Positions 12,599 to 38,557 of a stretch of DNA of 58,385 bases are shown here, piece by piece. Below the pieces are notes generated by a model. It made no database searches. It saw only the letters and a program-made list of their open reading frames with translations, and had not been told where the DNA came from. This stretch comes from Alphaproteobacteria bacterium (GTDB lineage: Bacteria > Pseudomonadota > Alphaproteobacteria > Rs-D84): assembly GCA_017534945.1 (NCBI GenBank), contig JAFXVB010000023.1, forward strand, positions 1 through 58,385, written 5' to 3'. Position 1 is the stretch's first letter. The number at the start of each line of letters is the position of its first letter. The translations under genes and the position numbers were made by a program.

Positions 12599-14017
12599 AT
12601 GTCAGATATCAAAGTCACAAAAATCGCAGAAACCGATGTTTCGCCAACTATATTGGCATCACACGCAGCAACAATGTGCTATAATGCCGATACCCCAGAA
12701 TTGGGTCGCACGATTGATGTTAAAAAACGTTTGTTTGATACAGGTCATCATTCAACACTGGAACATAACTATTGGACATTTATGATTGAAAATATTCCGG
12801 TTTCCAGTGTTGTATTTGGTTTGCACCTGACCGCACCATTTTATGATACCGATCAACGCAGTGGTCGTTTTTCTAAAATGTATGAAAATCCAGATATGGC
12901 TGACATAAAAAATACATTGGAAACATATTACCCAGATGCACCAGCACAAAACATAACCCAAGCGTGTGATTTTATCGAAAAAGGATTAAATGTTTATGCC
13001 GATAACAAAAACAAAGTGACCGAAATGGCACGTGACGCAATTCATCGTGAACGTCCAATGGCATCTGACAAATATGTTGAATCAAATGCGCCAAAATTGG
13101 CCCAGGAACAATTGCGTATGTTTGTGTCTATGATTGCACCAACGGCGCTTGATTGGACGGTTGACTTGGCAACAATTTGTGCGTTTTACAGAACTGCATG
13201 GACGCCATTTATGCGTGATGTGATGGATAAAATTACGGCTAACATCAAAACAACACATCCTGATATTGCATATATGTTTGATGAATCTGCGCGCAGCACA
13301 AGGGATTGGTCACCGGAATTTGAAAAACATTATGACATAGGTCCGGGTACAGGATTGGTTGTGCCAAAAACCCGATATATGGGTACCATAACACGTCCAG
13401 AATTCAAATTGCTGGATTATAAATATAACAACGAAAAATTTATGCCTAATCAATCGCGCGATACGGTCGATACTTTGCAATTCAGTCCGGAATATATGGA
13501 CAATTCGTTAATGTATGTACGCAGTCGTATTCATGTTGATGCGGGTGCGACAATGGGTCAAGATCAACGTCACCGCAGTATCAAACGTTCTAAACCCATA
13601 TTTACCGGATGTTTCTATTTGCCACCATTATTGGACATGGCCGGATTGAAACCGGTTGCGGATAACTGGATGCGTGATTTTTATAATATGGTGCGTAATC
13701 CAGAAATTCCAAATGGTTTTGTCACATCCATTGCACCATACGGGGCAATGGTTCGGTATGATAAACATGCGGATTTGAACGCATTGATTCACGAGCAAGG
13801 CAAACGCACATGTTGGTGTGCCCAAGAAGCCATTTATCACCTGGCGTGTGATTTGCGGCGTGAATTAGAAGAAAATCTCGTTTCAGATGCGGCGGTTTTG
13901 GATTACCTGACCCCACCATGTTTATCAATGGAGCATTGTGTCGAAGGTGCACGCTATTGTGGTCGTGATTTGAAAAACGAAACATTGGAAAAATATTTCC
14001 GCGACAGACAAATCTAA
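12599..14017 (+). CDS. thyX: FAD-dependent thymidylate synthase, tandem-domain type
   Basis: GHHSTLEH, DQRSGRF, QDQRHRS, EQGKRTCWCAQ; AAGGAG SD. Confidence 0.85.
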   Translation: MSDIKVTKIAETDVSPTILASHAATMCYNADTPELGRTIDVKKRLFDTGHHSTLEHNYWTFMIENIPVSSVVFGLHLTAPFYDTDQRSGRFSKMYENPDMADIKNTLETYYPDAPAQNITQACDFIEKGLNVYADNKNKVTEMARDAIHRERPMASDKYVESNAPKLAQEQLRMFVSMIAPTALDWTVDLATICAFYRTAWTPFMRDVMDKITANIKTTHPDIAYMFDESARSTRDWSPEFEKHYDIGPGTGLVVPKTRYMGTITRPEFKLLDYKYNNEKFMPNQSRDTVDTLQFSPEYMDNSLMYVRSRIHVDAGATMGQDQRHRSIKRSKPIFTGCFYLPPLLDMAGLKPVADNWMRDFYNMVRNPEIPNGFVTSIAPYGAMVRYDKHADLNALIHEQGKRTCWCAQEAIYHLACDLRRELEENLVSDAAVLDYLTPPCLSMEHCVEGARYCGRDLKNETLEKYFRDRQI

Positions 14018-14029
14018 AAAGGTATAAAT

Positions 14030-14434
14030 ATGAACACAAATGAAGCAAAGTTTCACGAATCCCGTCGTATATTCATTATAAACCCCGATTTAGGATTAGT
14101 GATTGCTCCACCAAAGGTCAACATATCTCATGTGGATATGGTATACAACATGGGGTTCGATGACAAGCAGTATGCCAATGTTGTTTTGAATAAAATACCA
14201 CGTGGTTATTATATGAAAGGTGAATTGTGTGTGTACCAGGGGGCTTATGGACCAACATGGGAATTAGCGCAATCTAATTATCAAATTGTGCAACAATATA
14301 TACCTGACTTGCGTGCGTTGTTTAATTTGAATGACAATTCAAATATGTATCTGGGTGTGCGTGTGGGCAAGGTTGGTGATGTATGGGAAAAAATAAATAA
14401 AACAACCATTGGACAATTTATGCAACAACGGTAA
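14030..14434 (+). CDS. hypothetical protein
   Basis: 134-aa ORF with AAAGGT SD. Confidence 0.7.
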   Translation: MNTNEAKFHESRRIFIINPDLGLVIAPPKVNISHVDMVYNMGFDDKQYANVVLNKIPRGYYMKGELCVYQGAYGPTWELAQSNYQIVQQYIPDLRALFNLNDNSNMYLGVRVGKVGDVWEKINKTTIGQFMQQR

Positions 14435-14499
14435 AGAATTACGCTTGCGAAAAATTTTGAAATGTTTTAAATTCTGTTAAGTAAATAAAGATAAAGAAC

Positions 14500-16737
14500 A
14501 TGAAAAACACTGCAACAATAAAAGAAAATATTGATTCACAACAATTGGGTGACGCACTATCGGAACGTTATTTGTCGTATGCGGTATCAACGATTGTGTC
14601 GCGCGCACTGCCTGATGTTCGTGACGGATTAAAACCTGTGCATCGTCGTATTTTATTTTCTATGTTGCGTCAAAAGTTATCGCCAAATGCCGCTTTTCGT
14701 AAATGTGCAACGGTTGTTGGTGACGTGTTGGGTCATTATCATCCGCATGGGGATTCATCGGTTTATGATGCTATGGTGCGTTTGGCCCAGGACTTTTCGG
14801 TTCGTTATCCATTAATTGATGGCCAGGGAAACTTTGGAAATATTGACGGCGACCCCCAGGCTGCATACCGTTATACTGAATCAAAAATGACCGATGCCGC
14901 CATGATGATTATGGAAGGTATTGACGAAGACAGTGTCGATATGATGCCGAACTTTGACGGTACAACGGTTGAACCAACGGTTATGCCGGGTGCATTTCCA
15001 AATTTGTTGGCAAATGGTGGTATGGGAATTGCGGTTGGTATGGCAACAAATATTCCAACACATAATGTGGCAGAGGTTTGCGATGCATTGTGTTTGGTTG
15101 TTGATAAACCAGAATCCACCACTGCACAAATTATGAAGAAATTGGTTGGGCCTGATTTTCCAACAGGTGGTGTTTTAATTGATGATTTTGATACGATTGT
15201 AAAAAATTATGATACGGGTCGTGGCGCGTTTCGTATTCGTGCAAAATATATTGTCGAAGAATTGGAACGTGGCGCATCCCAAGTGGTAATCACCGAAATC
15301 CCATATGGTATTGTGAAATCTAAATTGGTGGAACAAATCGGTGAAATGATTGATTCAAAAAAATTGCCATTGGTCGAAGATATTGTTGATGAATCAACCA
15401 CAGATGTTCGTATTGTTATAACGCCGAAAAACAGAAATGTTCCAATTGATAAAATGATGGCGCATTTATTTGCGATGACGGATTTAGAATATAAATTCAA
15501 TATGAATTTTAACGTCATTGATACAAATGGTGCACCGCGCGTAATGCCGATTGGTGATGTGTTGCGTGCATTTATTGCGCATCAAAAGCGGGTTTTAATC
15601 CGTCGCACGAATTGGCGTCTGCGTAATATTGCACATCGTTTGGAAATATTGGGCGGATTATTGGTTGTATATTTGAATCTGGATAGGGTAATTGAAATCA
15701 TTAGAAATGAAGACGAACCGAAACCGATATTGATGGCCGAATTTGATTTAACAGATATCCAGGTTGAATCGATTTTGAATACTCGTTTGCGTTCTTTGCG
15801 TAAATTGGAAGAAATGGAAATCAAACGCGAAGATGCGGAATTGCGTGCTGAACAAAAACAATTGCAAACTTTGTTGGCGGACGAAGAATTACAACGGGAA
15901 CAGTTAAAGGCTTGGTTTGCCGATATTAAAAAGGCATACGATAAAAAATCTGCATTGGGTCGTCGTCGTACAACTTGGAATGCCGCAACCGAAGATATCG
16001 TTGTGAATCCTGATGATTGGGTTGAAAAAGAACCAATGACTGTTATTTTGTCGGAAATGGGTTGGATTCGTGCGGCCAAAGGTCATCTGGATTTGGATAA
16101 TCTGGACATGAAATTCAAAGACGGTGATAATTTGCAAACCGCTTTCCACGCGATGAGTAATGATAAAATCAATATTTTCGGTGCATCGGGTAAAATGTTC
16201 ACGATTTCTGTGGCGGATTTGCCGTCTGCGCGTGGTTTTGGTGAATCTGTGCGTATGATGGTGGATTTGTCGGCTGATGAAAACATTGTTCGTGCATTTG
16301 TATTGGATACATCGGCAAAATATTTATTGGTGTCGCGTCATGGATCTGGATTTATTGTGGCGGGCGAAAATTGTTTGGCACAAACCAAGAACGGGAAACA
16401 GGTCATGAACGTTGATGATACCAATCCTGCGACTTTATGCGTTCCGGTCACTGGGGATACGGTTGCGATTTCTGGGTCAAATGACAAATTATTGGTATTC
16501 AGGACTGATCAAATTCCTGAAATGTCACGTGGCAAGGGTGTAATTTTACAAAAATACAATGCCGAACGCACATATGTATTGGATGTAATGTTCTTTAATT
16601 TGGCAAATGGGTTCAGTTGGACAACGGGTCGTGGCACGACAAAATTGGACGATATAACCCCATGGATGGCCAATCGTGCATCCCAAGGACGCACAATCCC
16701 GGTTGGTTTTCCACGCAGTGGCAAATTCAATAAATAA
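14500..16737 (+). CDS. parC: DNA topoisomerase IV subunit A
   Basis: [29 protein letters not shown]; no GyrA box. Confidence 0.95.
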
Positions 16738-24753: not shown

Positions 24754-25713
24754 TTATACTACTTCGGTCACAGCACGCAAACCACCGTCGCGCGATAATT
24801 GTACCACACGAATTTTCTTTTTCATCTCTTGAATTAAATCTGCGCGGTTATATGCGGGTTGTGTATGTAAAATTCTGTCTGCAAACGCGGCGTATGCGGC
24901 CTCGGCTGATTCTGCGTGAATAGTGGTGTAAAAATGGTCGTGTCCTGTGCCCAACATTTCCCACAAAACCGAAGCATTACTTGTTGAAATTTCACCGCCA
25001 ATAATAACATCCGGGGTCATACGAACAACCAAGTCCAATAATCGTGCATAATCAAAATCATTATTTTGTTCAGTGCGCGACAATATAAAATGCACACGAT
25101 TTTGTTGTGCCACATGAATTTCGCGTGCATCTTCGACGGTAATAATGCGCGCGTTTTGATCGATTAATGTCAACATATGGTTCAAGAAAGTTGTCTTACC
25201 GGTTGCTGTTGCACCACTAATCAATATAGGACTTGCATCATTTATTGCGTGCATCAATCGGTCATACGGATCGTCTGGACGTACTTTTTCGCGTGGTTTA
25301 ATTTTTAACAATTGTTTTCCATGTTCCAAATGATAGTTTTTAAAACTGACATCTGTTGCGCCACCACCACGAATACTCATTGCGACGCCGCCAGTTAAAT
25401 CATTGTCATCATATTGTACATTTGGACCGGCAATTGCAGAAAACCTGTGGTTCCCAGGCAATGTGGCATAAACAACCGGCACACCATGATACGGATCAAA
25501 TGGTTGTTCATAAATATTTGCCACAGTATGAATTAAATCCACCAAATATTGTTTGGAAAGTTGTGGCGCAGAATAAGCAACCCATGGCACGCGCGCACCA
25601 TGCAAACGCATCCATACCTGGCCCGCATGATTTATTGCGATTTCTTCTACAAAAGACGGAGTATAAAATTCCGCCAAAGGTTTTAATAAAGAATCAAGAA
25701 CTACATTTGTCAT
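24754..25713 (-). CDS. virB11: VirB11-family secretion ATPase
   Basis: EEIAIN, ISGATATGKTTF, ITVEDARE, RMTPDVIIGGE, TTIHA. Confidence 0.85.
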   Translation of the reverse strand: MTNVVLDSLLKPLAEFYTPSFVEEIAINHAGQVWMRLHGARVPWVAYSAPQLSKQYLVDLIHTVANIYEQPFDPYHGVPVVYATLPGNHRFSAIAGPNVQYDDNDLTGGVAMSIRGGGATDVSFKNYHLEHGKQLLKIKPREKVRPDDPYDRLMHAINDASPILISGATATGKTTFLNHMLTLIDQNARIITVEDAREIHVAQQNRVHFILSRTEQNNDFDYARLLDLVVRMTPDVIIGGEISTSNASVLWEMLGTGHDHFYTTIHAESAEAAYAAFADRILHTQPAYNRADLIQEMKKKIRVVQLSRDGGLRAVTEVV

Positions 25714-27217: not shown

Positions 27218-28441
27218 TTACAACACAGTATCTGTTGATGCAATTGCAATTGGTGCCATGTATTTTAATTCCGCATCACTGTGCAGTGATATCGGTTCAA
27301 TCACACCACGTCGCGACAAAATTTGCAATCCGCGTTCACACAGTGGTCTTATAAATTCATGCAATAACCGACCATATGTTGCGCCCAAAACACGCATCAT
27401 ATCGGCATTACGAGCCAATACTTCGGTTGCGGTCATTTCGCGGTCGGACATAAACCCAAGTCTGTCTGCCAACAAAGTATGGCGAATTCTGTCGCGCAAA
27501 TCGTTTAATACCAATTGTGAAACATCAAAATTTGCGCCGCTGGAAAGTGGGGTTAATCCAGAACTACCCACTGCTTTTGGAATTATTGCGCCGGGGGTCA
27601 GGTTTATGTTTTGTAAATTGATAACACCGTCATCATCGGCTTGCCAAATACCGCTGACCGCTATGGTTGCATTTTTCAAAACCAATTCTACAACTTTGTT
27701 TGCGGTTTTTATATCTGGCAAAGCGCGTAATACTGGACTCCGTCCATACAGTTCGCCACTGCATACACTCCAACGGAAAATCAAATAAGGATTTGTTTCA
27801 AATGTGCCGGTTGCGACAATATTATCTTCTATTGCGCCGTCAATATCTAACCATGCAACAAATTCCAAACCAACTAAAGATTGAATCAATCGCAGCGGAG
27901 TATCTGGATTTGCTTCGATTTTTTTCATAACATCTTTTGTGGGGACCCAATTTGGATAACGCATCATCACATCTGTTGCACTCATACTTGTTGTGTGAAA
28001 AATAGCGTTTGGTAAAATCGCAATATCTGTCATTGGGATTGTTGTGAAAGAAAAAGCACTGGTTGCACCAATTGGATTTTCTGTCATAAACATACATGCG
28101 GTACCATAGATACACAAATCCATATATGCCTGATGCACTGTTGTATAAAAATTAGAATCGTTCAAATTTGCGCGCAATGCATTGGTTGCGATTTCTGGAT
28201 TTGGCGAAGCATCGCTTTCTTTGACTAAATTTATCCACAACGATTCTGGGGGTGTCAATAATGTATAAATAGATGCTGCTAAATTATCAACCGCATCTGC
28301 CGCGGTACTATCAAATAATGTTGCAACTTCTGTATTGGTTGTTGGAACGGTATAACGACGCGCGTCATCCCATCGTTGCAACCAAGGTTCACGCAAAGTA
28401 ATTGCTTTGTTATACATTTTTTGTAAATTTTTTATATTCAT
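27218..28441 (-). CDS. portal (head-to-tail connector) protein, T7/BPP-1-like
   Basis: LFDSTAADAVDNLAASI, FRWSVCSGELYGRSPV..ALPDIK, MTATEVLAR, LGATYGRL. Confidence 0.9.
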   Translation of the reverse strand: MNIKNLQKMYNKAITLREPWLQRWDDARRYTVPTTNTEVATLFDSTAADAVDNLAASIYTLLTPPESLWINLVKESDASPNPEIATNALRANLNDSNFYTTVHQAYMDLCIYGTACMFMTENPIGATSAFSFTTIPMTDIAILPNAIFHTTSMSATDVMMRYPNWVPTKDVMKKIEANPDTPLRLIQSLVGLEFVAWLDIDGAIEDNIVATGTFETNPYLIFRWSVCSGELYGRSPVLRALPDIKTANKVVELVLKNATIAVSGIWQADDDGVINLQNINLTPGAIIPKAVGSSGLTPLSSGANFDVSQLVLNDLRDRIRHTLLADRLGFMSDREMTATEVLARNADMMRVLGATYGRLLHEFIRPLCERGLQILSRRGVIEPISLHSDAELKYMAPIAIASTDTVL

Positions 28442-28456: not shown

Positions 28457-29305
28457 CTATATTTTGAAATTTGTGTTTGCAGTATACATTCGTGTGGTAT
28501 GGTCATGTGGTCGGCATGGTATCGGCGTTGCATTTATTGCACCCGAAAACGCATCCAATCCGTCATCATGACCAATGCCGCCAATCGGTGACCACCCAAG
28601 CATTTCTGCCATAAAAGGCGTTTGTTGAATGCGGGTATGTGCAAATATGCGACCCGCACCCAAAAGTGGTTCCAAAGTATTTAAAATTCGTAATTCTTTT
28701 TTCGTATTATTTGTAATTTTTTGAACATATATACCACCACCACGATTGGCGATTTTATCCGCTAATATTTCGGGCAGTGCATTTCCCAATCCATTTGTTT
28801 CAACGGCCAACCTATGCAACTTATATTTATTTAGAAAATCCAAAACAATATCGCATTGATATGTTAATGGTTGTGGGCAATTATCCGGGACAACCATGTA
28901 CATAATATCATGTAAAAATATGTTATGAGATTTATCATCGCGAAATATCAAAACACATACACTGGAATCTGTATTTTTATGTCCCAATGCAGGATCCCAA
29001 TATACGGCGGCCCCAGTTATCGCCCAATCACCAATTTTTGCATTTGTTGGATTAAATTCGTGTGAATATAATTGAATTTTCCCTGGGTCTAAACGAATAT
29101 TATCCATCGGTGTAAATTTCAGCATCATTTGTGCCATGAAATGATGTTCACCGACGTTTTTTCTTAATTCATTTATTTTGTCAACTGGGAACACTTCTGG
29201 CCAAGTTGGCACGCCATCTGGGGTTTGGATTGGTAAAGAAAATTTTTTATATCCAATTAAAAAAGGCGTTGAAAAATGAAATTTTTTATTTACTATATTT
29301 GACAT
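28457..29305 (-). CDS. terminase large subunit, C-terminal nuclease half
   Basis: WPEVF..., YWDPALG, AVETNGLGNALP, HDDGLDAFSGAI; GGGAG SD inside the dnaB antisense strand. Confidence 0.85.
   Translation of the reverse strand: MSNIVNKKFHFSTPFLIGYKKFSLPIQTPDGVPTWPEVFPVDKINELRKNVGEHHFMAQMMLKFTPMDNIRLDPGKIQLYSHEFNPTNAKIGDWAITGAAVYWDPALGHKNTDSSVCVLIFRDDKSHNIFLHDIMYMVVPDNCPQPLTYQCDIVLDFLNKYKLHRLAVETNGLGNALPEILADKIANRGGGIYVQKITNNTKKELRILNTLEPLLGAGRIFAHTRIQQTPFMAEMLGWSPIGGIGHDDGLDAFSGAINATPIPCRPHDHTTRMYTANTNFKI
29269..29296 (+). promoter_or_regulatory. putative dnaB promoter (leaderless transcript)
   Basis: TTGAAA-16-TACTAT ending 7 bp before ATG 29304; no SD. Confidence 0.5.
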
Positions 29306-30872
29306 GGACTTTACTCCCAAAACTTTACCTACGAATCTGGAAGCCGAACAAGCGGTGTTGGCGGCTGTGTTGATGAATAATCGTGCTTTGGAAAAAGTCG
29401 GTGATTTTTTAAAACCCGAACACTTTTCACATCCTGCACACCAAGAAATTTATAAATTGGCATTGCGTCGTTTTGCGGCGGGCGTTCCTTTTGATATCAT
29501 TACGGCCAAAGATTATTTGACGCAACAGGGGACATTGGAAACCGTCGGTGGCATTAATTATTTGACTGAATTGTCTTCTGCTGGGGCGACGGTGGTAAAT
29601 GTTGAACAATATGGTCGAATTGTTTACGAAAACGCAATGCGCCGTCAATTGATTGCGCTGGGGCAATCAATTATGGATGATGCGTATGTTGAAAACCTAG
29701 ATAATCCTGTGGCGCGCCAATTGGAATGTGCGGAACAAAAATTGTTTGATATGGCGTCTGTTGGGGTTGCCGAACATGAACCTGCAACAATTGGTGTGGC
29801 ATTGCAAAGCGCATTGGAAGAAGCGCAAATTGCATACAAGGCCGATGGAAAATTATCGGGTTTAACCACTGGACTTACCAATTTGGATAAATCAATCAGT
29901 GGTTTGCATCACTCGGATTTAATTATTATTGCGGGTCGTCCTGCGATGGGTAAAACCACATTGGCGATGAATATCGCATTTAATGCGGCAAACGCAATTA
30001 TGACGGGACGCGCGAATAATCAATACAAAGGTGTGGTTGCGTTTTTCTCACTTGAAATGTCCGCATCACAATTGGCAACACGTGTTTTATCGTCCCAGAC
30101 AAAAATTCCGGCAACATCTATGCGTGAAGGTTCGTTGACTGATGAAGAATTTTTAAAAATGTCCCAATATTCCAAGGCAATCGCGCAAACGCCATTGGTT
30201 ATTGATGATACGGCGGGTATGTCTGTGCCTATGATTCGCACGCGTGCGCGGCGATTGGCGCGTAAATACGGTGGAATTGCATTGATTGTCATTGATTACC
30301 TGCAATTGATGATGTCGCCCGGTGGCAAACGAAGTGAAAATCGTGTCCAAGAATTGTCCGAAATTACTCGCGGTTTAAAAATGTTGGCCAAAGAGTTAGA
30401 TGTTCCTGTGATTGCATTGTCTCAATTATCACGCAGTGTTGAAATGCGTGATGATAAACGACCACAATTGGCGGATTTGCGTGAATCTGGATCAATTGAA
30501 CAAGATGCCGATATTGTTATGTTCACATATCGTGAAGAATACTATTTGGACAATCGTGATCCATCACAACGCATTTCTAATACAACATCACAAAACAGTG
30601 TTGAAACATGGCAAAGACGGCTTGAACGCGCCCGGGGCAAGGCGGATGTGATTATCGGTAAAAACCGTCATGGCCGACCCGAAACGGTTCGTTTGGCGTT
30701 TCTGGGTGATTATTGCCTGTTTGATAATTTGGATGAAATGGCGGAACGCAATACCGCACCATTACCCGGTGATTTCGCAGATACAGGCATCCCTGAACAA
30801 CATAATATTGTGCCAAATGACGATAATATTGGTGTTGATGTGTCCGCGATTCCTGATGATATACCATTATAA
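29304..30872 (+). CDS. dnaB: replicative DNA helicase, host type
   Basis: LPTNLEAEQAVL, AGRPAMGKT, FSLEMS, IDYLQL, LSQLSR, DLRESGSIEQDAD. Confidence 0.97.
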   Translation: MDFTPKTLPTNLEAEQAVLAAVLMNNRALEKVGDFLKPEHFSHPAHQEIYKLALRRFAAGVPFDIITAKDYLTQQGTLETVGGINYLTELSSAGATVVNVEQYGRIVYENAMRRQLIALGQSIMDDAYVENLDNPVARQLECAEQKLFDMASVGVAEHEPATIGVALQSALEEAQIAYKADGKLSGLTTGLTNLDKSISGLHHSDLIIIAGRPAMGKTTLAMNIAFNAANAIMTGRANNQYKGVVAFFSLEMSASQLATRVLSSQTKIPATSMREGSLTDEEFLKMSQYSKAIAQTPLVIDDTAGMSVPMIRTRARRLARKYGGIALIVIDYLQLMMSPGGKRSENRVQELSEITRGLKMLAKELDVPVIALSQLSRSVEMRDDKRPQLADLRESGSIEQDADIVMFTYREEYYLDNRDPSQRISNTTSQNSVETWQRRLERARGKADVIIGKNRHGRPETVRLAFLGDYCLFDNLDEMAERNTAPLPGDFADTGIPEQHNIVPNDDNIGVDVSAIPDDIPL

Positions 30873-30949
30873 TTTTCTGTACAGATTTTACTTGCCAAGT
30901 ATTTAAAAATTGACTAAACTTTTGTCAAGTATTCCAAGGAGTCAATAAT

Positions 30950-31957
30950 ATGGCACAAGAAGAAATCATTTTTCCAAATAATATACGAACAATCCGTTTG
31001 AACAACGGCATGAAAATGACGGAACTGGCGCGTAAGACCGGTTTAAGTTTGTCTGCTGTATCAAAAATAGAAAAGGGTGTTCGTCGTTTAAACCAAAAAC
31101 AGTTATTAAACATCTGCAATATTTTGGGTTGCAAACTGTCTGACATTTTCATCAAAGAATCTGATGCGGTTGCTGATAAATGGCAAACTGAAATTAAACG
31201 CCGTTTGAACGATAACGAACATGGCGGGTTAAAGGTTTTTGGTTCTGGATTGCGTAAAATCCGTCAATTACAGGGCAAAACCATTGCCCAGGCGGCCAAA
31301 GATGCCGGTATGACTTTATCTGTGTACCATAAAATTGAGATTGGCCAACGCGAAATTTATAAAAACGAAGTTGAACCTTTGGCAAAATCTTTTGCTTTAT
31401 CCGCCGAAGGCATGTTCGATAAAATCGCAAATCTTTATAAATCTGGCGAATTAACCAAACAGATAAACAAGGTCAAAGAACGTGTTAAATCTGTTTTGAT
31501 TCCTGATAATCCTGTATCTGGTATTGATATGCATGATGGATTATATGGTGCGAAATTATATGACAGTGCGCGCCGAAAATTGGTACCGGTGTTTGGGTCG
31601 CCTGCGGGTCGTGCAATTTCCTTTAAAAGAAATGATAAGGTTATGATTGTCGCGCCGGCATCACTTGAAGGTCGCAAATCAATTTACGCTGTTATTCCAA
31701 ATTCAAAACGCACAGGTGGTTTTATTCCTGAAAAATCGTATGTGTTTGTTGATGCAATGCAACCGGCCAATGCGGGTGATTTGGCATTATGTTTTGATGC
31801 TGATTTTGCAAAATTGGGTGCCGAAGATGTCATCAATGCTCAACTTGCGATTATACATGCCGATGCCAAGGGCAAATTATACGGCGCGATTGTTGACCCT
31901 CAGGAAAAAATTTACGCCAAAACCATGCATCGTGTTGTTTTGATTTTGACCGAATAA
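30950..31957 (+). CDS. XRE-family regulator with two HTH domains and a C-terminal S24-like region
   Basis: IRTIRLNNGMKMTELARKTGLSLSAVSKIEKG; LRKIRQLQGKTIAQAAKDAGMTLSVYHKIEIG. Confidence 0.85.
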   Translation: MAQEEIIFPNNIRTIRLNNGMKMTELARKTGLSLSAVSKIEKGVRRLNQKQLLNICNILGCKLSDIFIKESDAVADKWQTEIKRRLNDNEHGGLKVFGSGLRKIRQLQGKTIAQAAKDAGMTLSVYHKIEIGQREIYKNEVEPLAKSFALSAEGMFDKIANLYKSGELTKQINKVKERVKSVLIPDNPVSGIDMHDGLYGAKLYDSARRKLVPVFGSPAGRAISFKRNDKVMIVAPASLEGRKSIYAVIPNSKRTGGFIPEKSYVFVDAMQPANAGDLALCFDADFAKLGAEDVINAQLAIIHADAKGKLYGAIVDPQEKIYAKTMHRVVLILTE

Positions 31958-31980
31958 TAATTTGATGGAGGGGGAAAAAC

Positions 31981-32640
31981 ATGAAACCAAAAGCAAATCT
32001 TGTCGCACAAAGATTGGTTAACCTGTATCGTCAAGAACACGTAATTCTGGGCGGATGGGCTGCGTTAAACCCTATCTTTGTTAATGAAGCCACCGAAGAT
32101 GTCTTGATTGAAATGGCGGATTTGCCGACGGGTAAAATGTTGGTTCAGCACATTAAAAATTTGCGCAGTGGAAAAACCCCTATGGATTCGATTGACCGAA
32201 ATCTTTTGCCATATGGCGGTTTGATGGCGGAATCTGCGGTTACCATGCCATTGGATGAAAAACAATGGATTGATTTAGAAAACGCAATCAATAATTTTAC
32301 ACCAACTCAACAAGGTTTAATTGATTTACAAAAATTGGATATCATCAAAAGATTTGGTGACGAATGGTTGGTTGCAATTAAAACAATTTTATCTGGTCGT
32401 CCTGAATTATTACCAAAATGGAAAATTGTCATGCAAACATATCGCGCATATCATTTGTGGGATATGGCGACCCAAATTATAAATCAACCATTAACAGAAC
32501 GTGCGCGCGCACAAATTCAGGCTGATATGCCTGAATATGAAACTTTTTTGCCTATGTTCGCAGATGAAGGTAAAAAATTATTAGAACGTCTGCGTACATT
32601 TATGAAGGAAACCAAACACCCAGATACCCAACAAGATTAA
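31981..32640 (+). CDS. hypothetical protein
   Basis: GGAGGGG SD; 219 aa. Confidence 0.75.
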   Translation: MKPKANLVAQRLVNLYRQEHVILGGWAALNPIFVNEATEDVLIEMADLPTGKMLVQHIKNLRSGKTPMDSIDRNLLPYGGLMAESAVTMPLDEKQWIDLENAINNFTPTQQGLIDLQKLDIIKRFGDEWLVAIKTILSGRPELLPKWKIVMQTYRAYHLWDMATQIINQPLTERARAQIQADMPEYETFLPMFADEGKKLLERLRTFMKETKHPDTQQD

Positions 32641-33254
32641 TCGTCATCATCGCTTGTTCTGTATATTGTATCCATTGTATGCGGGGTTCCAATATAAATC
32701 ATTGTGCCGTTTGGTGATAAAATAAAATCCAATTCTCGTAATTTTTCGCGTAATGCTTCGCGCTTTTGTGGGGTGTTGGAAGTATTTGGAACTTCCACAT
32801 CATCGCATATTATTAAATCTGCGCGCATACCGGTAATATTGCCATGTATTCCTTGGCAAATAACAGACGGTTCACGAATCCCAATTGGACGATTTATTGT
32901 TATTTTATCATTTGCCCACTCTTTTTTTGGATTTGGAACCATATCGAAACACAGCGGATGGTTTTCTAATATATTTTTAATATGTTGAACCATGCGTGCC
33001 GCCAATACAGTATGTGCCGACAAAACCAATATTCTGGTTTTTGGACGTAAATATAAAATATACGCCGCAAATATTCCAACAATGGTAGATTTACCAGAAT
33101 GTCGAAACGCCATCAACAAACCTCTATGATTTGGTGATTGCCATACATCATACAAAAAATTTAACATATCTTTGTGGTGTTTTGGTGTTTTATATCCCAA
33201 AATATCATTCCAAGAATCAGCAAATTGGTGGACTTGTGTAAGCATTTTATCCAA
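32637..33254 (-). CDS. terminase large subunit, N-terminal ATPase half
   Basis: LMAFRHSGKST (Walker A), ADLIICDDVE (Walker B), IYIGTPH. Confidence 0.88.
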   Translation of the reverse strand: MDKMLTQVHQFADSWNDILGYKTPKHHKDMLNFLYDVWQSPNHRGLLMAFRHSGKSTIVGIFAAYILYLRPKTRILVLSAHTVLAARMVQHIKNILENHPLCFDMVPNPKKEWANDKITINRPIGIREPSVICQGIHGNITGMRADLIICDDVEVPNTSNTPQKREALREKLRELDFILSPNGTMIYIGTPHTMDTIYRTSDDDD

Positions 33255-33594
33255 CTATATCATCAACTCGTGAAAGTAATTTTTTCAATAAATTTGGTTT
33301 GTTTGTTTTTATATTTTTTAATTTTTCTAAATTATCCTTTTTTTTATCTTCAAAAGATTGTGCTGTTTCATCCCGCATACGACGCAAAACCGCGCCTGTC
33401 ATAGTGTTGGACGCGGATACGCCACTGGCGCCGTATTTGGCGCGTTGCGAAGCCAATGCTTTTTTTATTAAATTAGTTTTATTTTGTTCGTCATTTGCTA
33501 TTTTTTGCAAAATTTCCTGACGTTGGTTATTTGCAGATTTTTTTGTTTTTTGATAATTCAAAATTTCGTTAACATCGGATACCAATTGTCCCAT
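33247..33594 (-). CDS. phage virion protein (internal-virion-like)
   Basis: ALASQRAKYGASGVS motif; position after tail tubular B. Confidence 0.55.
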   Translation of the reverse strand: MGQLVSDVNEILNYQKTKKSANNQRQEILQKIANDEQNKTNLIKKALASQRAKYGASGVSASNTMTGAVLRRMRDETAQSFEDKKKDNLEKLKNIKTNKPNLLKKLLSRVDDIVG

Positions 33595-33612
33595 TTTTAT
33601 CTCCTTTTTGTA

Positions 33613-35325
33613 TTAAATTTCGTATTGTCCATAAATTGTCACAGAAAAAACTGTAATCGGCATAGGTTCATCGCCATGTAATGTCCACAGTGGTGTTGAT
33701 TCATCTATTTGTGAACCCAACATATTCATAGATATATCACCAGAAAATCCTGGGGATGACGGCAAATAAACTTCGTTTGGTAATTCAATACGCATATTGT
33801 TTATAAAAGCGCTTTTGGTATTCATCAAACGTAAACTTATTTTGCGCAGACGTAAATGTACCGGACGATGTCCAGAAAAATTCATAGGCACCCCCGATGC
33901 ACTAAATTCAATTTTATAAGTTGTTGAATCTGTCAAAGCAGTATGCGAAAATTTTGCCAGTTTATATGTGCTATTGTTTTCTATAATAACAAAAGTTTCG
34001 CCGCCACTGATTGCCACAGATGTAAATTTTCCGTATGTTGTATATCGTGCCCATGCAGAAATCCCAAGATTAGTGTTTTGGTTTAATACGGCTATATCGC
34101 CATTTTTATTCACAATATACAACTGTTTTGATACTTTGTTATATGCAATATCTGTTGGTTCATTAATCAAGTGTTTGGCAAAAATACATAAGTCATCAGC
34201 GTTATATTTATCACCCAAAGTATCCAAAGATAATTTACGAATATCTTTCATAGTATTGGATACAAAAACAGTTTCGCCTTCGATTTTTTGTGGCGTCAAC
34301 GAATATCCTGTGACACTTCCAACTGTTGTATGCTGTTTGATGTTTATATTGGATGGGGTAAGTGGTTGATTGGCGATTGCCCATTCTCCATGTGATGTTA
34401 AGACCTGTAATTTATCGCTACTGATTAAATTACATATTTCTTGTCTTTCTTTGGATAATAATGTTGTTGTAATTGCTTCGTCATCTAAGCCTGTGCCGGC
34501 ATTAAAATTATGGTGTTCACCTGTTTGTGACATCCAAATACCACCGGGATTATAATATGTGCCACCAAATACCAATCTATCTTGGTGAAAAGTCACAGAA
34601 CGTGGCCATCCATGACGCGAATCAAACGCACTTTCTAACCAATCAGTAATAGCGGTTCCTGGTAAAGTATATTCTTCCACACTTTTAGCATAGACCACAG
34701 TTGGATTGACATATTCAATAATTTCCCATGTTTGATTTCCAAATTGCACAATTGTTCCAACATTTGATGATGTCCAATAATTGCCAGATGCAGTAAATAC
34801 CGCAGACATTGACCCATATGGGCCACTGGTAAGTGTGATTGAAATGCCGCGCATTTCATCATATTTCATTAAAGGAAATTGTGGGTATATTCCTGTGGAG
34901 TCATAAAAACTGAATATCCCCAAAGAAAAACTGTTGCCACTTTTTGTTAAAATATATGGGCAAATATCCGGATGAACAAAAATCATAGAATCACCACGAC
35001 CTGTGAATTGTATTTTTGATAAAGATTCCGTTGACCATGGCGATACTAATGTTTGCACTAATGTATCATTGGAATAAATTGATACTGTAAAATTAGTAAA
35101 TACCAATATATAATTTTCTTGTTGTGAAATATCAAACGAAAATATACGTGCCGCACCAGATAATACAGCAACATCAACCAATCCCGGACGTAATGTCAAT
35201 CCGCCACCGGCCAATACATCCATGTTTTCCAAATGTGCCAACCCAGATATATTTTTGTTCAAGTAAAATTCAGGTGCAATTTCACCATTTGCAAAAGAAT
35301 TTTGTGTATGTATAAATTCTGTCAT
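33613..35325 (-). CDS. tail tubular protein B / stabilisation protein
   Basis: QNSFANGEIAP, GWPRSVTFHQDRLVFGG, WMSQTG. Confidence 0.85.
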   Translation of the reverse strand: MTEFIHTQNSFANGEIAPEFYLNKNISGLAHLENMDVLAGGGLTLRPGLVDVAVLSGAARIFSFDISQQENYILVFTNFTVSIYSNDTLVQTLVSPWSTESLSKIQFTGRGDSMIFVHPDICPYILTKSGNSFSLGIFSFYDSTGIYPQFPLMKYDEMRGISITLTSGPYGSMSAVFTASGNYWTSSNVGTIVQFGNQTWEIIEYVNPTVVYAKSVEEYTLPGTAITDWLESAFDSRHGWPRSVTFHQDRLVFGGTYYNPGGIWMSQTGEHHNFNAGTGLDDEAITTTLLSKERQEICNLISSDKLQVLTSHGEWAIANQPLTPSNINIKQHTTVGSVTGYSLTPQKIEGETVFVSNTMKDIRKLSLDTLGDKYNADDLCIFAKHLINEPTDIAYNKVSKQLYIVNKNGDIAVLNQNTNLGISAWARYTTYGKFTSVAISGGETFVIIENNSTYKLAKFSHTALTDSTTYKIEFSASGVPMNFSGHRPVHLRLRKISLRLMNTKSAFINNMRIELPNEVYLPSSPGFSGDISMNMLGSQIDESTPLWTLHGDEPMPITVFSVTIYGQYEI

Positions 35326-35340
35326 AACATACCTCCTTTT

Positions 35341-35859
35341 TTAAAATCTGGCATTAATCAAAGAAAATTGCTCTATCCCAGAATTTATATCTGTGGTGGA
35401 ATCTATAAACTTTGCATTTTGAAATTCTGCTTCATATAAATTGATAAGTGTTCTTAACATTTGTTGACTGCCGGTAAGTGGTATACAAAATTCTATCGCT
35501 AATTTAGTAGCAGCCAACGCAACAAAATAACTTGGAAATTTTTCTGTGCTTACACGCATAATGGCCATCATTTGAACATTATCTGTATTTGCACAAATTT
35601 GATTTCCATATATTCGACCATTACAATGCAAAATCCTTAGTACATTTTCAGGAATAATAAATTCATTGTCTTGATTTTTTTCAATTGATAAATTTTGTGT
35701 GGCGAAACGCCATGGATGATTTGACAACAAAGCATCAATTACTATGTCATATAATGTTCTGGCTAATTGTGCAGAAGCACTGTCTGTATTAAGTGATACC
35801 AACGGTTTTTCGCCCAACTTTAACAATGCCATAGAACATAAATCTAATTTCGTAAGCAT
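35341..35859 (-). CDS. tail tubular protein A / adaptor
   Basis: LDLCSMALLKLGEKPLVSL, HPWRFA, FPSYFV.LAA.KLA. Confidence 0.85.
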   Translation of the reverse strand: MLTKLDLCSMALLKLGEKPLVSLNTDSASAQLARTLYDIVIDALLSNHPWRFATQNLSIEKNQDNEFIIPENVLRILHCNGRIYGNQICANTDNVQMMAIMRVSTEKFPSYFVALAATKLAIEFCIPLTGSQQMLRTLINLYEAEFQNAKFIDSTTDINSGIEQFSLINARF

Positions 35860-35875
35860 ATTTATCCTTTTTAGT

Positions 35876-35906
35876 AAAAAGATAGTGGGACAAATATCCC
35901 ACTATC
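35876..35906 (-). terminator. terminator after the capsid genes
   Basis: GATAGTGGGA-caaata-TCCCACTATC plus T5 on the minus strand. Confidence 0.7.
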
Positions 35907-35932
35907 ATATTAAGTTTGTTTTATAGTTTATA

Positions 35933-36163
35933 TTAAGACAATGCATCTACTGTCACAGTATCGCTTGCTACTGCTATTGTCATGATGGATGTGCCGTCTG
36001 ACGCATTGATTATGATAATATCGCCAGTATTCATTAATGTCGCAACATTGTTGAAATACCCACTCGCAGAAATTGCGGTCAATGTTTCATCCGCGGCATA
36101 GTGCCACAAAGTAAAACCATTTGCATACGCAATTACAGATAATTTTTTATTTTGAAATGCCAT
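35933..36163 (-). CDS. small phage protein after the capsid gene (decoration-like)
   Basis: LSVIAYANGFTLWHY...GYFN...GDIIII. Confidence 0.7.
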   Translation of the reverse strand: MAFQNKKLSVIAYANGFTLWHYAADETLTAISASGYFNNVATLMNTGDIIIINASDGTSIMTIAVASDTVTVDALS

Positions 36164-36202
36164 CTGTTTTCCTTTTGGTTATTTGTTTTATATAGAGTGT
36201 TG

Positions 36203-37024
36203 TTATGCGTTATCTTTACATTTAAGACGAACGATTCCATCTTGATCAATCAAGACTGCGCCTTGGGACATGCTGTTGCTAATAAAGTGCGCCGCACGTT
36301 CACCATGCCAAGTAATATCTGTTTTGACTTCTTGACCGCATGCATGACCAATACTGGACGCATGATATATAAAGCAACTGCGTTCTGTTGTATTGCTTAA
36401 CGGCAAATCATTGTGCAAAACCCATGTGATGCCCAACCATTTTCTGGCTTCATAACCTTTGACCATTGGATTGTCGCCAACATAATCTGCTGACACAAAT
36501 TCAGTAATGCCCAACAATTCGTTCCATTGATGAACACCAACAACACCGAATCTGCGGCCATCATCTGGAACATCTTTTTCGTTTAATTTTTCGATTGCTT
36601 GCAAAATCATCGATTTGCTTAAACCGGCTGAAAAGTTGCCAACATATGCGGTGGCACCGTTCATTGCATCAATAATTAATTCATCTGTTTTGCGACCCAA
36701 TGCATACGCACCAGCCGAAGCAACAACACGACGTTCATCAATATTGGTTTTCAATTCATCCAAACTATCAACCCAATCACCAGCATAGTAATCCTGTAAA
36801 ACACATTCCACAGGTTGATGATTCAAATTCATAACTGGCACAATACCATGTCTGGATTTTGTGCTGGCGGTGCCGCGTCCAATTGTTTGGAAAGTTGTAG
36901 ATTGTCCCACAACACCAGATTTGCTGCGAATTGTAGAACGTAATTTTGTGCCCATTTGCTGATAAGCCAAATGAACATCTGCTTCAAATTGTTTCACAAA
37001 AACTTGATCGATAGAAACAGACAT
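36203..37024 (-). CDS. major capsid protein
   Basis: IDQVFVKQFEADVHLAYQQMGTKLR, YAGDWVDSLDELK, AYALGRKTD; AAGGA SD. Confidence 0.88.
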   Translation of the reverse strand: MSVSIDQVFVKQFEADVHLAYQQMGTKLRSTIRSKSGVVGQSTTFQTIGRGTASTKSRHGIVPVMNLNHQPVECVLQDYYAGDWVDSLDELKTNIDERRVVASAGAYALGRKTDELIIDAMNGATAYVGNFSAGLSKSMILQAIEKLNEKDVPDDGRRFGVVGVHQWNELLGITEFVSADYVGDNPMVKGYEARKWLGITWVLHNDLPLSNTTERSCFIYHASSIGHACGQEVKTDITWHGERAAHFISNSMSQGAVLIDQDGIVRLKCKDNA

Positions 37025-37207
37025 ATTTATTCCTTTTGTTAAATTAAAAAAAACATGGTGCAAAAAATTGCACCGACCAAAGATTGATTTTTGTTTTTTT
37101 GATTATGCAAACATAACATTTGCGTCATATAACAAAATGCGGGGTCTGTAAAAGATTGTCCTGCAACAGTTTTAGTTAGACTAATTATTCATCTAACTAA
37201 AATTATT

Positions 37208-37233
37208 AAAAAACCCGCAATTTCTTGCGGGTT
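37208..37233 (-). terminator. terminator after the histone-like gene
   Basis: AACCCGCAA/TTGCGGGTT plus T tract. Confidence 0.75.
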
Positions 37234-37254
37234 AAATTGACTTAAAAGAAAATA

Positions 37255-37575
37255 TTATTTTCTTTTTGCCGCTTTTTTGCATGCGCATTTTTTCGCAGGT
37301 GCTTTTTTAGCAACAGCTTTCTTAGCAACTGGTTTTTTTGCAGCAACTTTTTTAACCGCTACTTTCTTAGCAGCTGGTTTTTTAGCAACTACTTTTTTTG
37401 CAACTGGTTTTTTCGCAGCAACTTTTTTTGCAGGTGCTTTTTTTGCAACTGGTTTTTTAGCAGCTGGTTTCTTTGCAGCTACTTTTTTAGCAGCTGGTTT
37501 TTTTGCTGCAGGTTTTTTAGCAGCAGGTTTAGCGGCAGGTTTAGCAGCTTTTTTTGCTGAAAATAAGAATGCCAT
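37255..37575 (-). CDS. histone H1-like (HC2/AlgP-type) Lys/Ala-rich protein
   Basis: KKPAA/KKVAA pentapeptide repeats; AGGAG SD; TGGACT-17-TAGAAT promoter at 37629-37657. Confidence 0.85.
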   Translation of the reverse strand: MAFLFSAKKAAKPAAKPAAKKPAAKKPAAKKVAAKKPAAKKPVAKKAPAKKVAAKKPVAKKVVAKKPAAKKVAVKKVAAKKPVAKKAVAKKAPAKKCACKKAAKRK

Positions 37576-37686
37576 TCTTCTCTCCTTTTTATGTTTTGGA
37601 TAGAACAAATTTTTTTGTTCTTACTTATATTCTATATGAAAAGAAAATAAGAGTCCAGAAAAAATTATTTTTTTATTTAATTTTTT

Positions 37687-38355
37687 TTAATTTTTTTCAT
37701 TTGAATATAATTTTTTAAAACCATTTTCAATTTTACGAACATATTCAGGATCCGCATCACGCCAATATTTTGGATCGCGCATCATGCGTCTTAAATCTGC
37801 GTCTGTTAAATTTTCTTGCACATCAATATTTGTTTCGATGTGTGGTTCCATTGATTGCATCATCGCGTACACACCTTGGATTCCGCTGGCGCTGGAACAT
37901 AATGATTCAAATGCATCGTGTGGTAAAAATTTTTCACCAAATGTATTTATCGCAGATAAAGCATCGTTCATTTTATCGCGTGACCCAAAAAATTTTTCCA
38001 ATTTTGAAATTTCATCTGTTTCATTTTTAACAGAAAATAATTCTGTGATGACGGGTGATAAAAATTCTTCTGCTACGGAATAAATTTGTTCAACTTGATG
38101 TGATGTTAATCCCATATCATGAAATTTTTGTTTAATCGATTCGTCATCGAACAAATCATTTTTTGGATAATCATCCGCATTTTCTGGCACACCAATTGCA
38201 CGATTAAATTTTTCGCGCGTGACTTTATCGTCATCATTATGTGGCACAGATATCATACCACCAATTTTCTTTTCCAATTCATTATAAGATTTTAATAACG
38301 CATCAACATTGGTTGTGCCATCATCGTTTTGAAATTTTTCTGGTACTTTTTGCAT
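37687..38355 (-). CDS. capsid assembly (scaffold) protein
   Basis: VPEKFQNDDG..NVDALLKSYNELEKKIG; MMRDPKYWRD. Confidence 0.8.
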   Translation of the reverse strand: MQKVPEKFQNDDGTTNVDALLKSYNELEKKIGGMISVPHNDDDKVTREKFNRAIGVPENADDYPKNDLFDDESIKQKFHDMGLTSHQVEQIYSVAEEFLSPVITELFSVKNETDEISKLEKFFGSRDKMNDALSAINTFGEKFLPHDAFESLCSSASGIQGVYAMMQSMEPHIETNIDVQENLTDADLRRMMRDPKYWRDADPEYVRKIENGFKKLYSNEKN

Positions 38356-38557
38356 TTGTTCTCCTTTTTGTATCCTTTGATTTACGCAAGAAATAAATTC
38401 CGCCAAGTGTGAATACAGATTGCATGGTCATAAACAAATCTGCATCGCCAACTAAATAAGCCGCGATGGCGGATAAAATTCCAACGCCTGATAATATATA
38501 TGTTCTGTGTCCGGCCAAGAATCCGCCATGAATAATTTTTTGTATTTTCATTTCCAT
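38321..38557 (-). CDS. putative holin
   Basis: GFLAGHRTYILSGVGILSAIAAYLVG; two TM segments and a basic tail. Confidence 0.55.
   Translation of the reverse strand: MEMKIQKIIHGGFLAGHRTYILSGVGILSAIAAYLVGDADLFMTMQSVFTLGGIYFLRKSKDTKRRTNAKSTRKISKR

Follow-up and report, generated by a model that had tools for sequence, protein, structure and literature searches.

A probable compaction-driven, dual-coded boundary between a terminase gene and dnaB in the T7-like particle gene cluster of Candidatus Enterousia

How does a gene for a replicative helicase come to share nucleotides with a gene of a phage-like particle, and could such an arrangement set particle production against replication? The question is raised by contig JAFXVB010000023.1 of assembly GCA_017534945.1 (58,385 nucleotides [nt], called the window here), from a genome of 0.9 Mb and 38% GC. 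Candidatus Enterousia (Alphaproteobacteria, GTDB order Rs-D84) is uncultured and genome-reduced and comes from gut and rumen (PMC12306168). The minus strand of the window holds T7-like particle genes, read from 38.4 to 27.2 kb, and three plus-strand genes lie between terN and terC, which encode the N- and C-terminal parts of the terminase: dnaB, a gene for a 335-amino-acid (aa) protein with two helix-turn-helix (HTH) domains, and a gene for a 219-aa protein (hyp219). A sequence-only reading of this stretch had pointed to four signals, a CATG shared by the starts of terC and dnaB, a TTAA shared by the stops of hyp219 and terN, a Shine-Dalgarno (SD) site GGGAG 8 nt from the terC ATG and a promoter TTGAAA-16-TACTAT inside terC, and all four are present (Table 1). 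It had also spoken of an inserted block, and had proposed that the two units are co-adapted and that particle production could repress host replication in an excludon-like way. We consider it probable that the junction is a compaction-driven, dual-coded gene boundary within an old, vertically inherited T7-like particle cluster of Rs-D84.

Conservation of the head-to-head junction and of the dnaB promoter

We compared the junction across 86 Enterousia loci, comprising 81 distinct sequences, taken from same-genus genomes together with loci gathered by capsid similarity. The gene order portal-terC<>dnaB-HTH-hyp219<>terN is retained in nearly all of 36 same-genus genomes. CATG, the −35 hexamer TTGAA[A/T], the 16-nt spacer and the −10 hexamer TAnnnT are each found in all 81 distinct sequences, and so is ATG as the dnaB start codon. 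The −10 hexamer ends 7 nt before this ATG in 73 of the 81, with no SD within the 7 nt, while the remaining 8 have an 18-nt insert between the −10 hexamer and the ATG that carries AAGGA at SD distance from the dnaB start. The promoter match in the source sequence alone is at chance level (31 sigma-70-like matches in 7 kb versus 26.2 ± 5.1 in shuffled sequences), so the weight of this promoter comes from the comparison with relatives.

Codons 1 to 20 of terC have a third-position entropy of 0.74 bits, versus 1.47 in the rest of the gene. Among amino-acid-conserved terC codons, the third position is frozen in 8 of 12 within codons 2 to 16 versus 4 of 176 elsewhere (Fisher p=7e-9, a value that compares regions of one tree rather than independent samples). 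When eight genes (portal, terC, dnaB, HTH, hyp219, terN, the 115-aa gene and tail B; ~8 kb) were scanned for synonymous constraint, terC codons 2 to 20 were the sole constrained window. Synonymous divergence (dS) is ~1.4 even between the nearest relatives, so the conservation of the junction does not stem from recent shared ancestry; the TerC proteins are merely 45 to 80% identical. The overlap itself is of a rare kind, since in a crude genome-wide gene call a 2-nt divergent overlap was seen in 2 of 127 cases, with a median divergent gap of 120 nt.

The element combines the −35 and −10 hexamers of a sigma-70-type promoter and a 16-nt spacing, within the 16 to 18 nt expected for this type, with conservation that exceeds coding need. 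In 73 of the 81 sequences it has the geometry of a leaderless start, for which the −10 hexamer should lie 6 to 8 nt from the ATG, with TAnnnT ending 7 nt before an ATG without SD. The dnaB mRNA is most likely leaderless in most Enterousia species, which agrees with the earlier proposal of a promoter inside terC that starts dnaB at its ATG. Two Enterousia genomes help to tell which gene the element serves. In G033, capsid, portal and terC are all gone, and dnaB is preceded by non-coding DNA that reads GGCGTTGAC, ~17 nt, ATAAT and then a leader with AAGGAG. In G028, the cluster is decayed, with terC, terN and also the capsid gene truncated and the pieces fused by deletions, and a 225-nt remnant of the terC 5' end keeps the promoter and leader intact. 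Because the promoter outlives the loss of terC in both genomes, the conserved element serves dnaB.

The −10 hexamer TACTAT is also nearly palindromic with TATAGT on the minus strand (window 29292 to 29320). Together with TTGGGA (29320 to 29315), TATAGT forms a promoter-like minus-strand match whose transcript would begin downstream of the terC ATG, and this match may reflect bidirectional −10 symmetry.

The terC start and its ribosome-binding site within dnaB

An in-frame terC ATG within CATG is present in 85 of 85 loci and is the sole universal start. The motif S.PFL.G(Y/F)..L.IP at terC codons 12 to 25 lies upstream of every alternative start, and since it is common to the outgroup families, terC translation should begin upstream of it. 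We therefore side with the sequence-only reading in predicting that terC is translated from the ATG in CATG rather than from a downstream start.

The corresponding SD site lies on the opposite strand of dnaB codons 4 and 5, where the antisense reads NGGAGT in 62 of the 81 sequences and NGGGGT in 19. The dnaB Thr4 codon is ACT (61) or ACC (19), while ACA and ACG, which together account for 55% of dnaB Thr codons, do not occur there. Of 81 conserved four-fold codons, Thr4 alone is confined to two bases, and this restriction preserves the antisense GG[A/G]G for terC. In the SD profile of the genome, GGAG motifs are concentrated upstream of starts, with the first base at −13 to −9, and hardly occur within genes; for terC this base is at −12, within the profile. 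Selection at synonymous sites thus maintains each of the two embedded signals, the promoter that terC carries for dnaB and the SD that dnaB carries for terC.

The stop/stop overlap

At the opposite end of the block, a YTAR 4-nt overlap between hyp219 and terN was found in 41 of 87 loci; in the others the two genes overlap by up to 127 nt or stand up to 16 nt apart. An overlap of this size is also the commonest convergent one in the genome (9 of 141, crude gene call). Being absent from most loci and of the commonest type, TTAA is ordinary and unconstrained. Co-adaptation of the two units, and the conservation expected of both overlaps and of the SD, hold for the head-to-head end, where selection on synonymous sites goes with genus-wide retention, but not for the TTAA end. 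No conserved intrinsic terminator was found among the relatives past either stop of this convergent junction, and a hairpin at 33442 to 33459 in the window is not conserved in them.

A two-gene terminase that predates the block

terN aligns to residues 34 to 216 of T7-type gp19 (E=1e-23) and contains GKST, CDDVE and GTPHT, while terC residues 31 to 65 align to gp19 residues 259 to 293. These alignments place the break at about gp19 residues 217 to 229, inside the ATPase domain and before the lid, not at the linker between ATPase and nuclease. The Walker motifs of terN and the nuclease acidic residues of terC are intact and invariant; in terC, neither D104, E169 and D247/D248/D251 nor the motifs WDP, ETNG and DDGLDA vary within the order.

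terN and terC are already separate open reading frames (ORFs) in representatives of five other Rs-D84 families, with the terN end at the same place, just after GTPHT..IY, and with terC 170 to 320 nt downstream of terN in another frame or beyond stop codons. In none of the six families examined are both activities on one polypeptide, and a search of free phages returned only distant full-length T7-like TerL proteins, 23 to 28% identical. The dnaB block as the cause of the terminase split is therefore rejected on the outgroup ORF maps; since the two genes are separate in every other family examined, the block sits between genes that were separate beforehand. In the family that we label f3, terN and portal-terC are 5.5 to 7 kb apart, and the intervening genes at one locus (L044) include ftsZ. 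With dnaB in Enterousia and ftsZ in f3, essential host genes have been nested in the particle cluster at least twice.

Two further observations concern these outgroup loci. At L044, positions 13371 to 15125 (genome G053), ftsZ and two genes for secreted or membrane proteins are flanked by terN and portal-terC, all in one orientation. At L047 to L051, the non-coding gap of 170 to 320 nt between terN and terC is long for genomes of ~90% coding density and might contain a promoter, an RNA element or what is left of an intron.

The host genes of the block

dnaB reaches 600.1 bits against NF006606 (cut-off 540) and 409 against phage_DnaB, below the cut-off of 498.65, and it is single copy in the source genome and in 20 relatives. 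A phage-derived dnaB was accordingly rejected, the gene passing the cellular equivalog cut-off, failing the phage one and being single copy. In other families dnaB lies far from the cluster, behind an ordinary intergenic region with an SD. The dnaB of the block is thus the single cellular replicative helicase gene, relocated into the cluster in Enterousia. The Enterousia DnaB starts MDFTPK, while the proteins of other families (L132 to L139) are longer at the N-terminus by ~8 residues, ahead of the homologous GDFL(R/K). It seems that both junction proteins have been cut back to a minimum.

The HTH-hyp219 pair is single copy and conserved order-wide, the hyp219 homologue always following the HTH gene, and it is not beside dnaB outside Enterousia. 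Profile searches gave no family match for hyp219. In some f3 genomes the pair shares the strand of terC and lies 3 to 4 kb downstream of it, and in several families the hyp219 homologue has two or three tandem repeats of its C-terminal part.

Inheritance, selection and loss of the cluster

Ratios of nonsynonymous to synonymous divergence (dN/dS) indicate purifying selection on the particle genes, with 0.055 for the capsid, ~0.15 for the tail genes and terN, portal and terC in between (Table 1), compared with 0.058 for dnaB. A value of 1.2 for the scaffold was disregarded as an alignment artefact of partial high-scoring segment pairs. The trees of capsid, terN and terC reproduce the DnaB clades. 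The cluster thus joins phage structural and packaging genes, vertical inheritance and purifying selection, without replication or lysogeny genes, as is typical of gene transfer agents (GTAs). We take it to be an old, vertically inherited and probably functional element, and a candidate GTA-like machine. It is dispensable, since two Enterousia species, G033 and G028, have lost or degraded it; a third genome (G030) had no match to any gene of the region, possibly through masking, and was not counted as a loss. We found no description of this cluster in Enterousia or Rs-D84 in the literature searched. A Faecalibacterium element, FpGTA, has been reported to be the first GTA-like element of podovirus-like kind (PMC12946183).

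Gene content of the cluster

The minus-strand order of the particle genes is scaffold, a Lys/Ala-rich histone-like gene, major capsid, a 76-aa gene, tail tubular A, tail tubular B, a 115-aa gene, terN, terC and portal. Table 1 lists the features of the junction and its surroundings.

Table 1 Features of the terC-dnaB junction and the surrounding particle gene cluster (positions in the window)
Feature	Position	Strand	Evidence and remarks
portal, T7-type (head-tail connector)	27218..28441	−	PF12236, E=6.8e-76; 73-84% identity within genus; dN/dS 0.08; downstream of terC
terC, C-terminal terminase gene (ATPase lid region and RNase H-like nuclease), 282 aa	28457..29305	−	PF22530; phrog_38 positions 481-705; dN/dS 0.12
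putative dnaB promoter in terC codons 4-16	29259..29296	+	A-tract 29259-29264; −35 TTGAAA 29269-29274; 16-nt spacer; −10 TACTAT 29291-29296
CATG, 2-nt start/start overlap of terC (−) and dnaB (+)	29303..29306	both	terC ATG 29305->29303; dnaB ATG 29304-29306
GGGAG, putative terC SD, antisense in dnaB codons 4-5 (Thr-Pro)	29314..29318	−	reads CTCCC on + strand; 8 nt to terC ATG
dnaB, single replicative helicase	29304..30872	+	NF006606, TIGR00665; no SD; −10 ends 7 nt before ATG
335-aa protein, two XRE-type HTH domains and unknown C-terminal domain	30950..31957	+	PF01381 twice; dN/dS 0.05
hyp219, 219-aa conserved hypothetical, partner of HTH gene	31981..32640	+	order-wide beside HTH gene; dN/dS 0.12
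TTAA, 4-nt stop/stop overlap of hyp219 (+) and terN (−)	32637..32640	both	YTAR overlap in 41/87 loci
terN, N-terminal terminase gene (ATPase core: Walker A, Walker B, motif III)	32637..33254	−	phrog_38 positions 285-459; dN/dS 0.08
remaining particle genes, 115-aa gene through scaffold	33247..38406	−	PF19821 (major capsid); phrog_376, 394, 3437; conserved across order Rs-D84

Some neighboring genes deserve mention. The Lys/Ala-rich, histone H1-like gene between scaffold and capsid (37255 to 37608, minus strand) is followed by a strong terminator hairpin, and a similar gene is found at the equivalent position in family f3 (L044 3867 to 4175; L045 17487 to 17738); it may encode a DNA-condensing particle component, or else be a host gene for a nucleoid protein that is nested among the particle genes. 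The 76-aa ORF between capsid and tail tubular A (35933 to 36163, minus strand), with a hairpin and T-run after it (~35880 to 35905), had no family match, and its product could serve in head decoration or head completion. Also close to the cluster is a VirB11-type ATPase gene (24754 to 25713, minus strand), around which the ORF list of the window shows no further virB genes. In relatives this gene is 85% identical and is found several kb past the end of the cluster at which the scaffold gene lies.

How the junction may have arisen, and whether it is a switch

According to the explanation that we favor, the terminase would have been encoded as terN and terC before the Rs-D84 families diverged. 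In the ancestor of Enterousia, a 3.3-kb host block (dnaB, the two-HTH gene and its partner gene) would have lodged inverted between the two, and all intergenic DNA would have been lost after its arrival. The sigma-70-type promoter in terC codons 4 to 16 would most likely start transcription on the A of the dnaB ATG, or right beside it, and yield a leaderless mRNA, with one subclade having regained an 18-nt leader with an SD, while terC would be translated from the ATG in CATG via the GG[A/G]G site antisense in dnaB codons 4 and 5. Because this ribosome-binding site lies in dnaB, the terC mRNA should begin inside dnaB and overlap it in antisense by at least 14 nt; the earlier claim that terC mRNA runs antisense to the dnaB 5' end follows from this geometry. 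The terC-portal mRNA would then cross the dnaB promoter, so that the two promoters would point towards one another and probably interfere to some extent. We regard such interference as a by-product of compaction and not as a dedicated switch.

Several points weigh against this explanation. The block may have been inserted, or the arrangement may have come about by local inversions, and either order of events is possible. The SD signal is largely that of one codon, the GG being forced by the proline codon; the sequences compared are related to each other; and the 48-nt conserved element could hold an operator besides the promoter. The transcription starts of dnaB and of terC are both predicted ones.

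Of the competing explanations, the one that survives best, although we think it unlikely, is a dedicated excludon-like switch, in which an induced long terC-portal mRNA, starting deep in the dnaB block or reading through from the tailA-terN operon, would run antisense over dnaB and its promoter and shut down helicase synthesis, so that particle production and replication would exclude each other. The obligatory antisense overlap of at least 14 nt would suit it, as would the retention of the arrangement in ~34 of 37 species-level genomes. terN-terC(-portal) lies on one strand, operon-like, in other families, so the Enterousia block interrupts an ancestral transcription unit, and no conserved intrinsic terminator was found after terN or hyp219. 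Nor was a conserved dedicated promoter for terC found: a search of the minus strand within dnaB for a conserved sigma-70 promoter gave only a few −10-like hexamers without a −35 hexamer, and the eight-gene scan of synonymous constraint gave nothing other than the dnaB promoter. Against the switch, the case for it is one of geometry, and dnaB, the HTH gene and hyp219 show no synonymous-site constraint that would hint at antisense signals. Rho terminates long untranslated antisense RNAs; it is encoded in the genome, which disfavors a 3.3-kb untranslated antisense read-through from terN. Existing DnaB protein would presumably outlast a block of transcription. Family f3, moreover, nests ftsZ on the same strand, that is, an essential gene without any antisense arrangement. 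Excludon-like repression of replication by the particle genes therefore seems unlikely on the evidence of these sequences.

We give a slim chance to a further reading, in which the expression of the sole replicative helicase would be mechanically tied to a domesticated podovirus-like particle machine, induced terC-portal transcription passing over the leaderless dnaB promoter and constitutive firing of dnaB throttling the particle genes. If true, this coupling would amount to a built-in either/or choice between replication and particles in a 0.9-Mb symbiont genome.

It is doubtful, and a little more so, that the conserved 48-nt element is mainly an operator, for the two-HTH protein or some other DNA-binding factor, or else acts as RNA within the terC 5' coding region, with dnaB transcribed from further upstream in terC. 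Such a role would account for the invariance that reaches past both hexamers to AAAAAAGGCG, and a regulator gene lies in the same operon. However, the conserved positions are exactly those of the −35 hexamer, a fixed 16-nt spacer and the TA...T of the −10 hexamer, and no further conserved element was found upstream in terC. The 18-nt insert past the −10 hexamer adds an SD for dnaB, as expected of a 5' untranslated region, and in G033 the same element lies in non-coding DNA ahead of a dnaB that has an SD leader.

That terC is a decaying remnant, its 5' end kept only for the dnaB promoter and its CATG start and SD coincidental, is very improbable, for although a few lineages with a truncated or lost terC keep the promoter and the source annotation starts terC downstream (251 aa), the gene is full length without stops in at least 30 species, has its low dN/dS over the whole gene, keeps its catalytic residues and C-terminal tail invariant order-wide and carries the outgroup-shared N-terminal motif upstream of all alternative starts.

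Significance and comparison with known systems

The compact boundary that we favor would make this locus a natural example of opposite-strand genes that each encode the expression signal of the other, with a dual constraint that is measurable at synonymous sites across ~80 species-level sequences. It also yields a testable prediction, namely that the essential dnaB is leaderless in most species. Should the interference prove regulatory, chromosome replication would be linked to phage-like particle production in an uncultured, genome-reduced gut symbiont.

Among known systems, the excludons of Listeria monocytogenes, reportedly described by Sesto et al. in 2013 as long antisense RNAs spanning divergent operons, resemble the locus in that terC-portal on the minus strand stands head to head with dnaB-HTH-hyp219 on the plus strand, with 5' ends that necessarily overlap and one mRNA antisense to the start of the other. 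Here, however, the demonstrable overlap is only ~14 nt, and the system is known from its sequence alone. The pR and pL promoters of coliphage 186 are said to have been described by Callen et al. in 2004 as face-to-face promoters with transcriptional interference. In a similar way, the dnaB promoter points at a putative terC promoter inside dnaB, and elongation from either would pass over the other; unlike in coliphage 186, both promoters (that of terC being putative) lie in coding sequence and the translated regions overlap by 2 nt.

Leaderless mRNAs are common in Caulobacter and other Alphaproteobacteria, in Actinobacteria and in archaea. dnaB resembles them with a −10 hexamer that ends 7 nt before the ATG, no SD and an ATG start in all 81 sequences, whereas one Enterousia subclade departs from them with an 18-nt, SD-bearing leader, and the dnaB start is a predicted one.

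With GTAs of the RcGTA type and with FpGTA, the Rs-D84 cluster shares vertically inherited head, tail and packaging genes under purifying selection and without replication or lysogeny genes. It differs in its T7-like ancestry within Alphaproteobacteria, its two-gene terminase and the essential host genes nested in it, and it is known here from its genes. The last comparison is with the T7 terminase gp19 (PDB 8dgc, 4bij), with which terN shares Walker A, Walker B and motif III, and terC a lid-like WP..F...Q and the RNase H-like nuclease. Unlike gp19, the Rs-D84 terminase is encoded by two genes in all families, and these can be separated by kilobases of host genes; such tolerance implies that the part with the ATPase and the part with the nuclease come together in trans.

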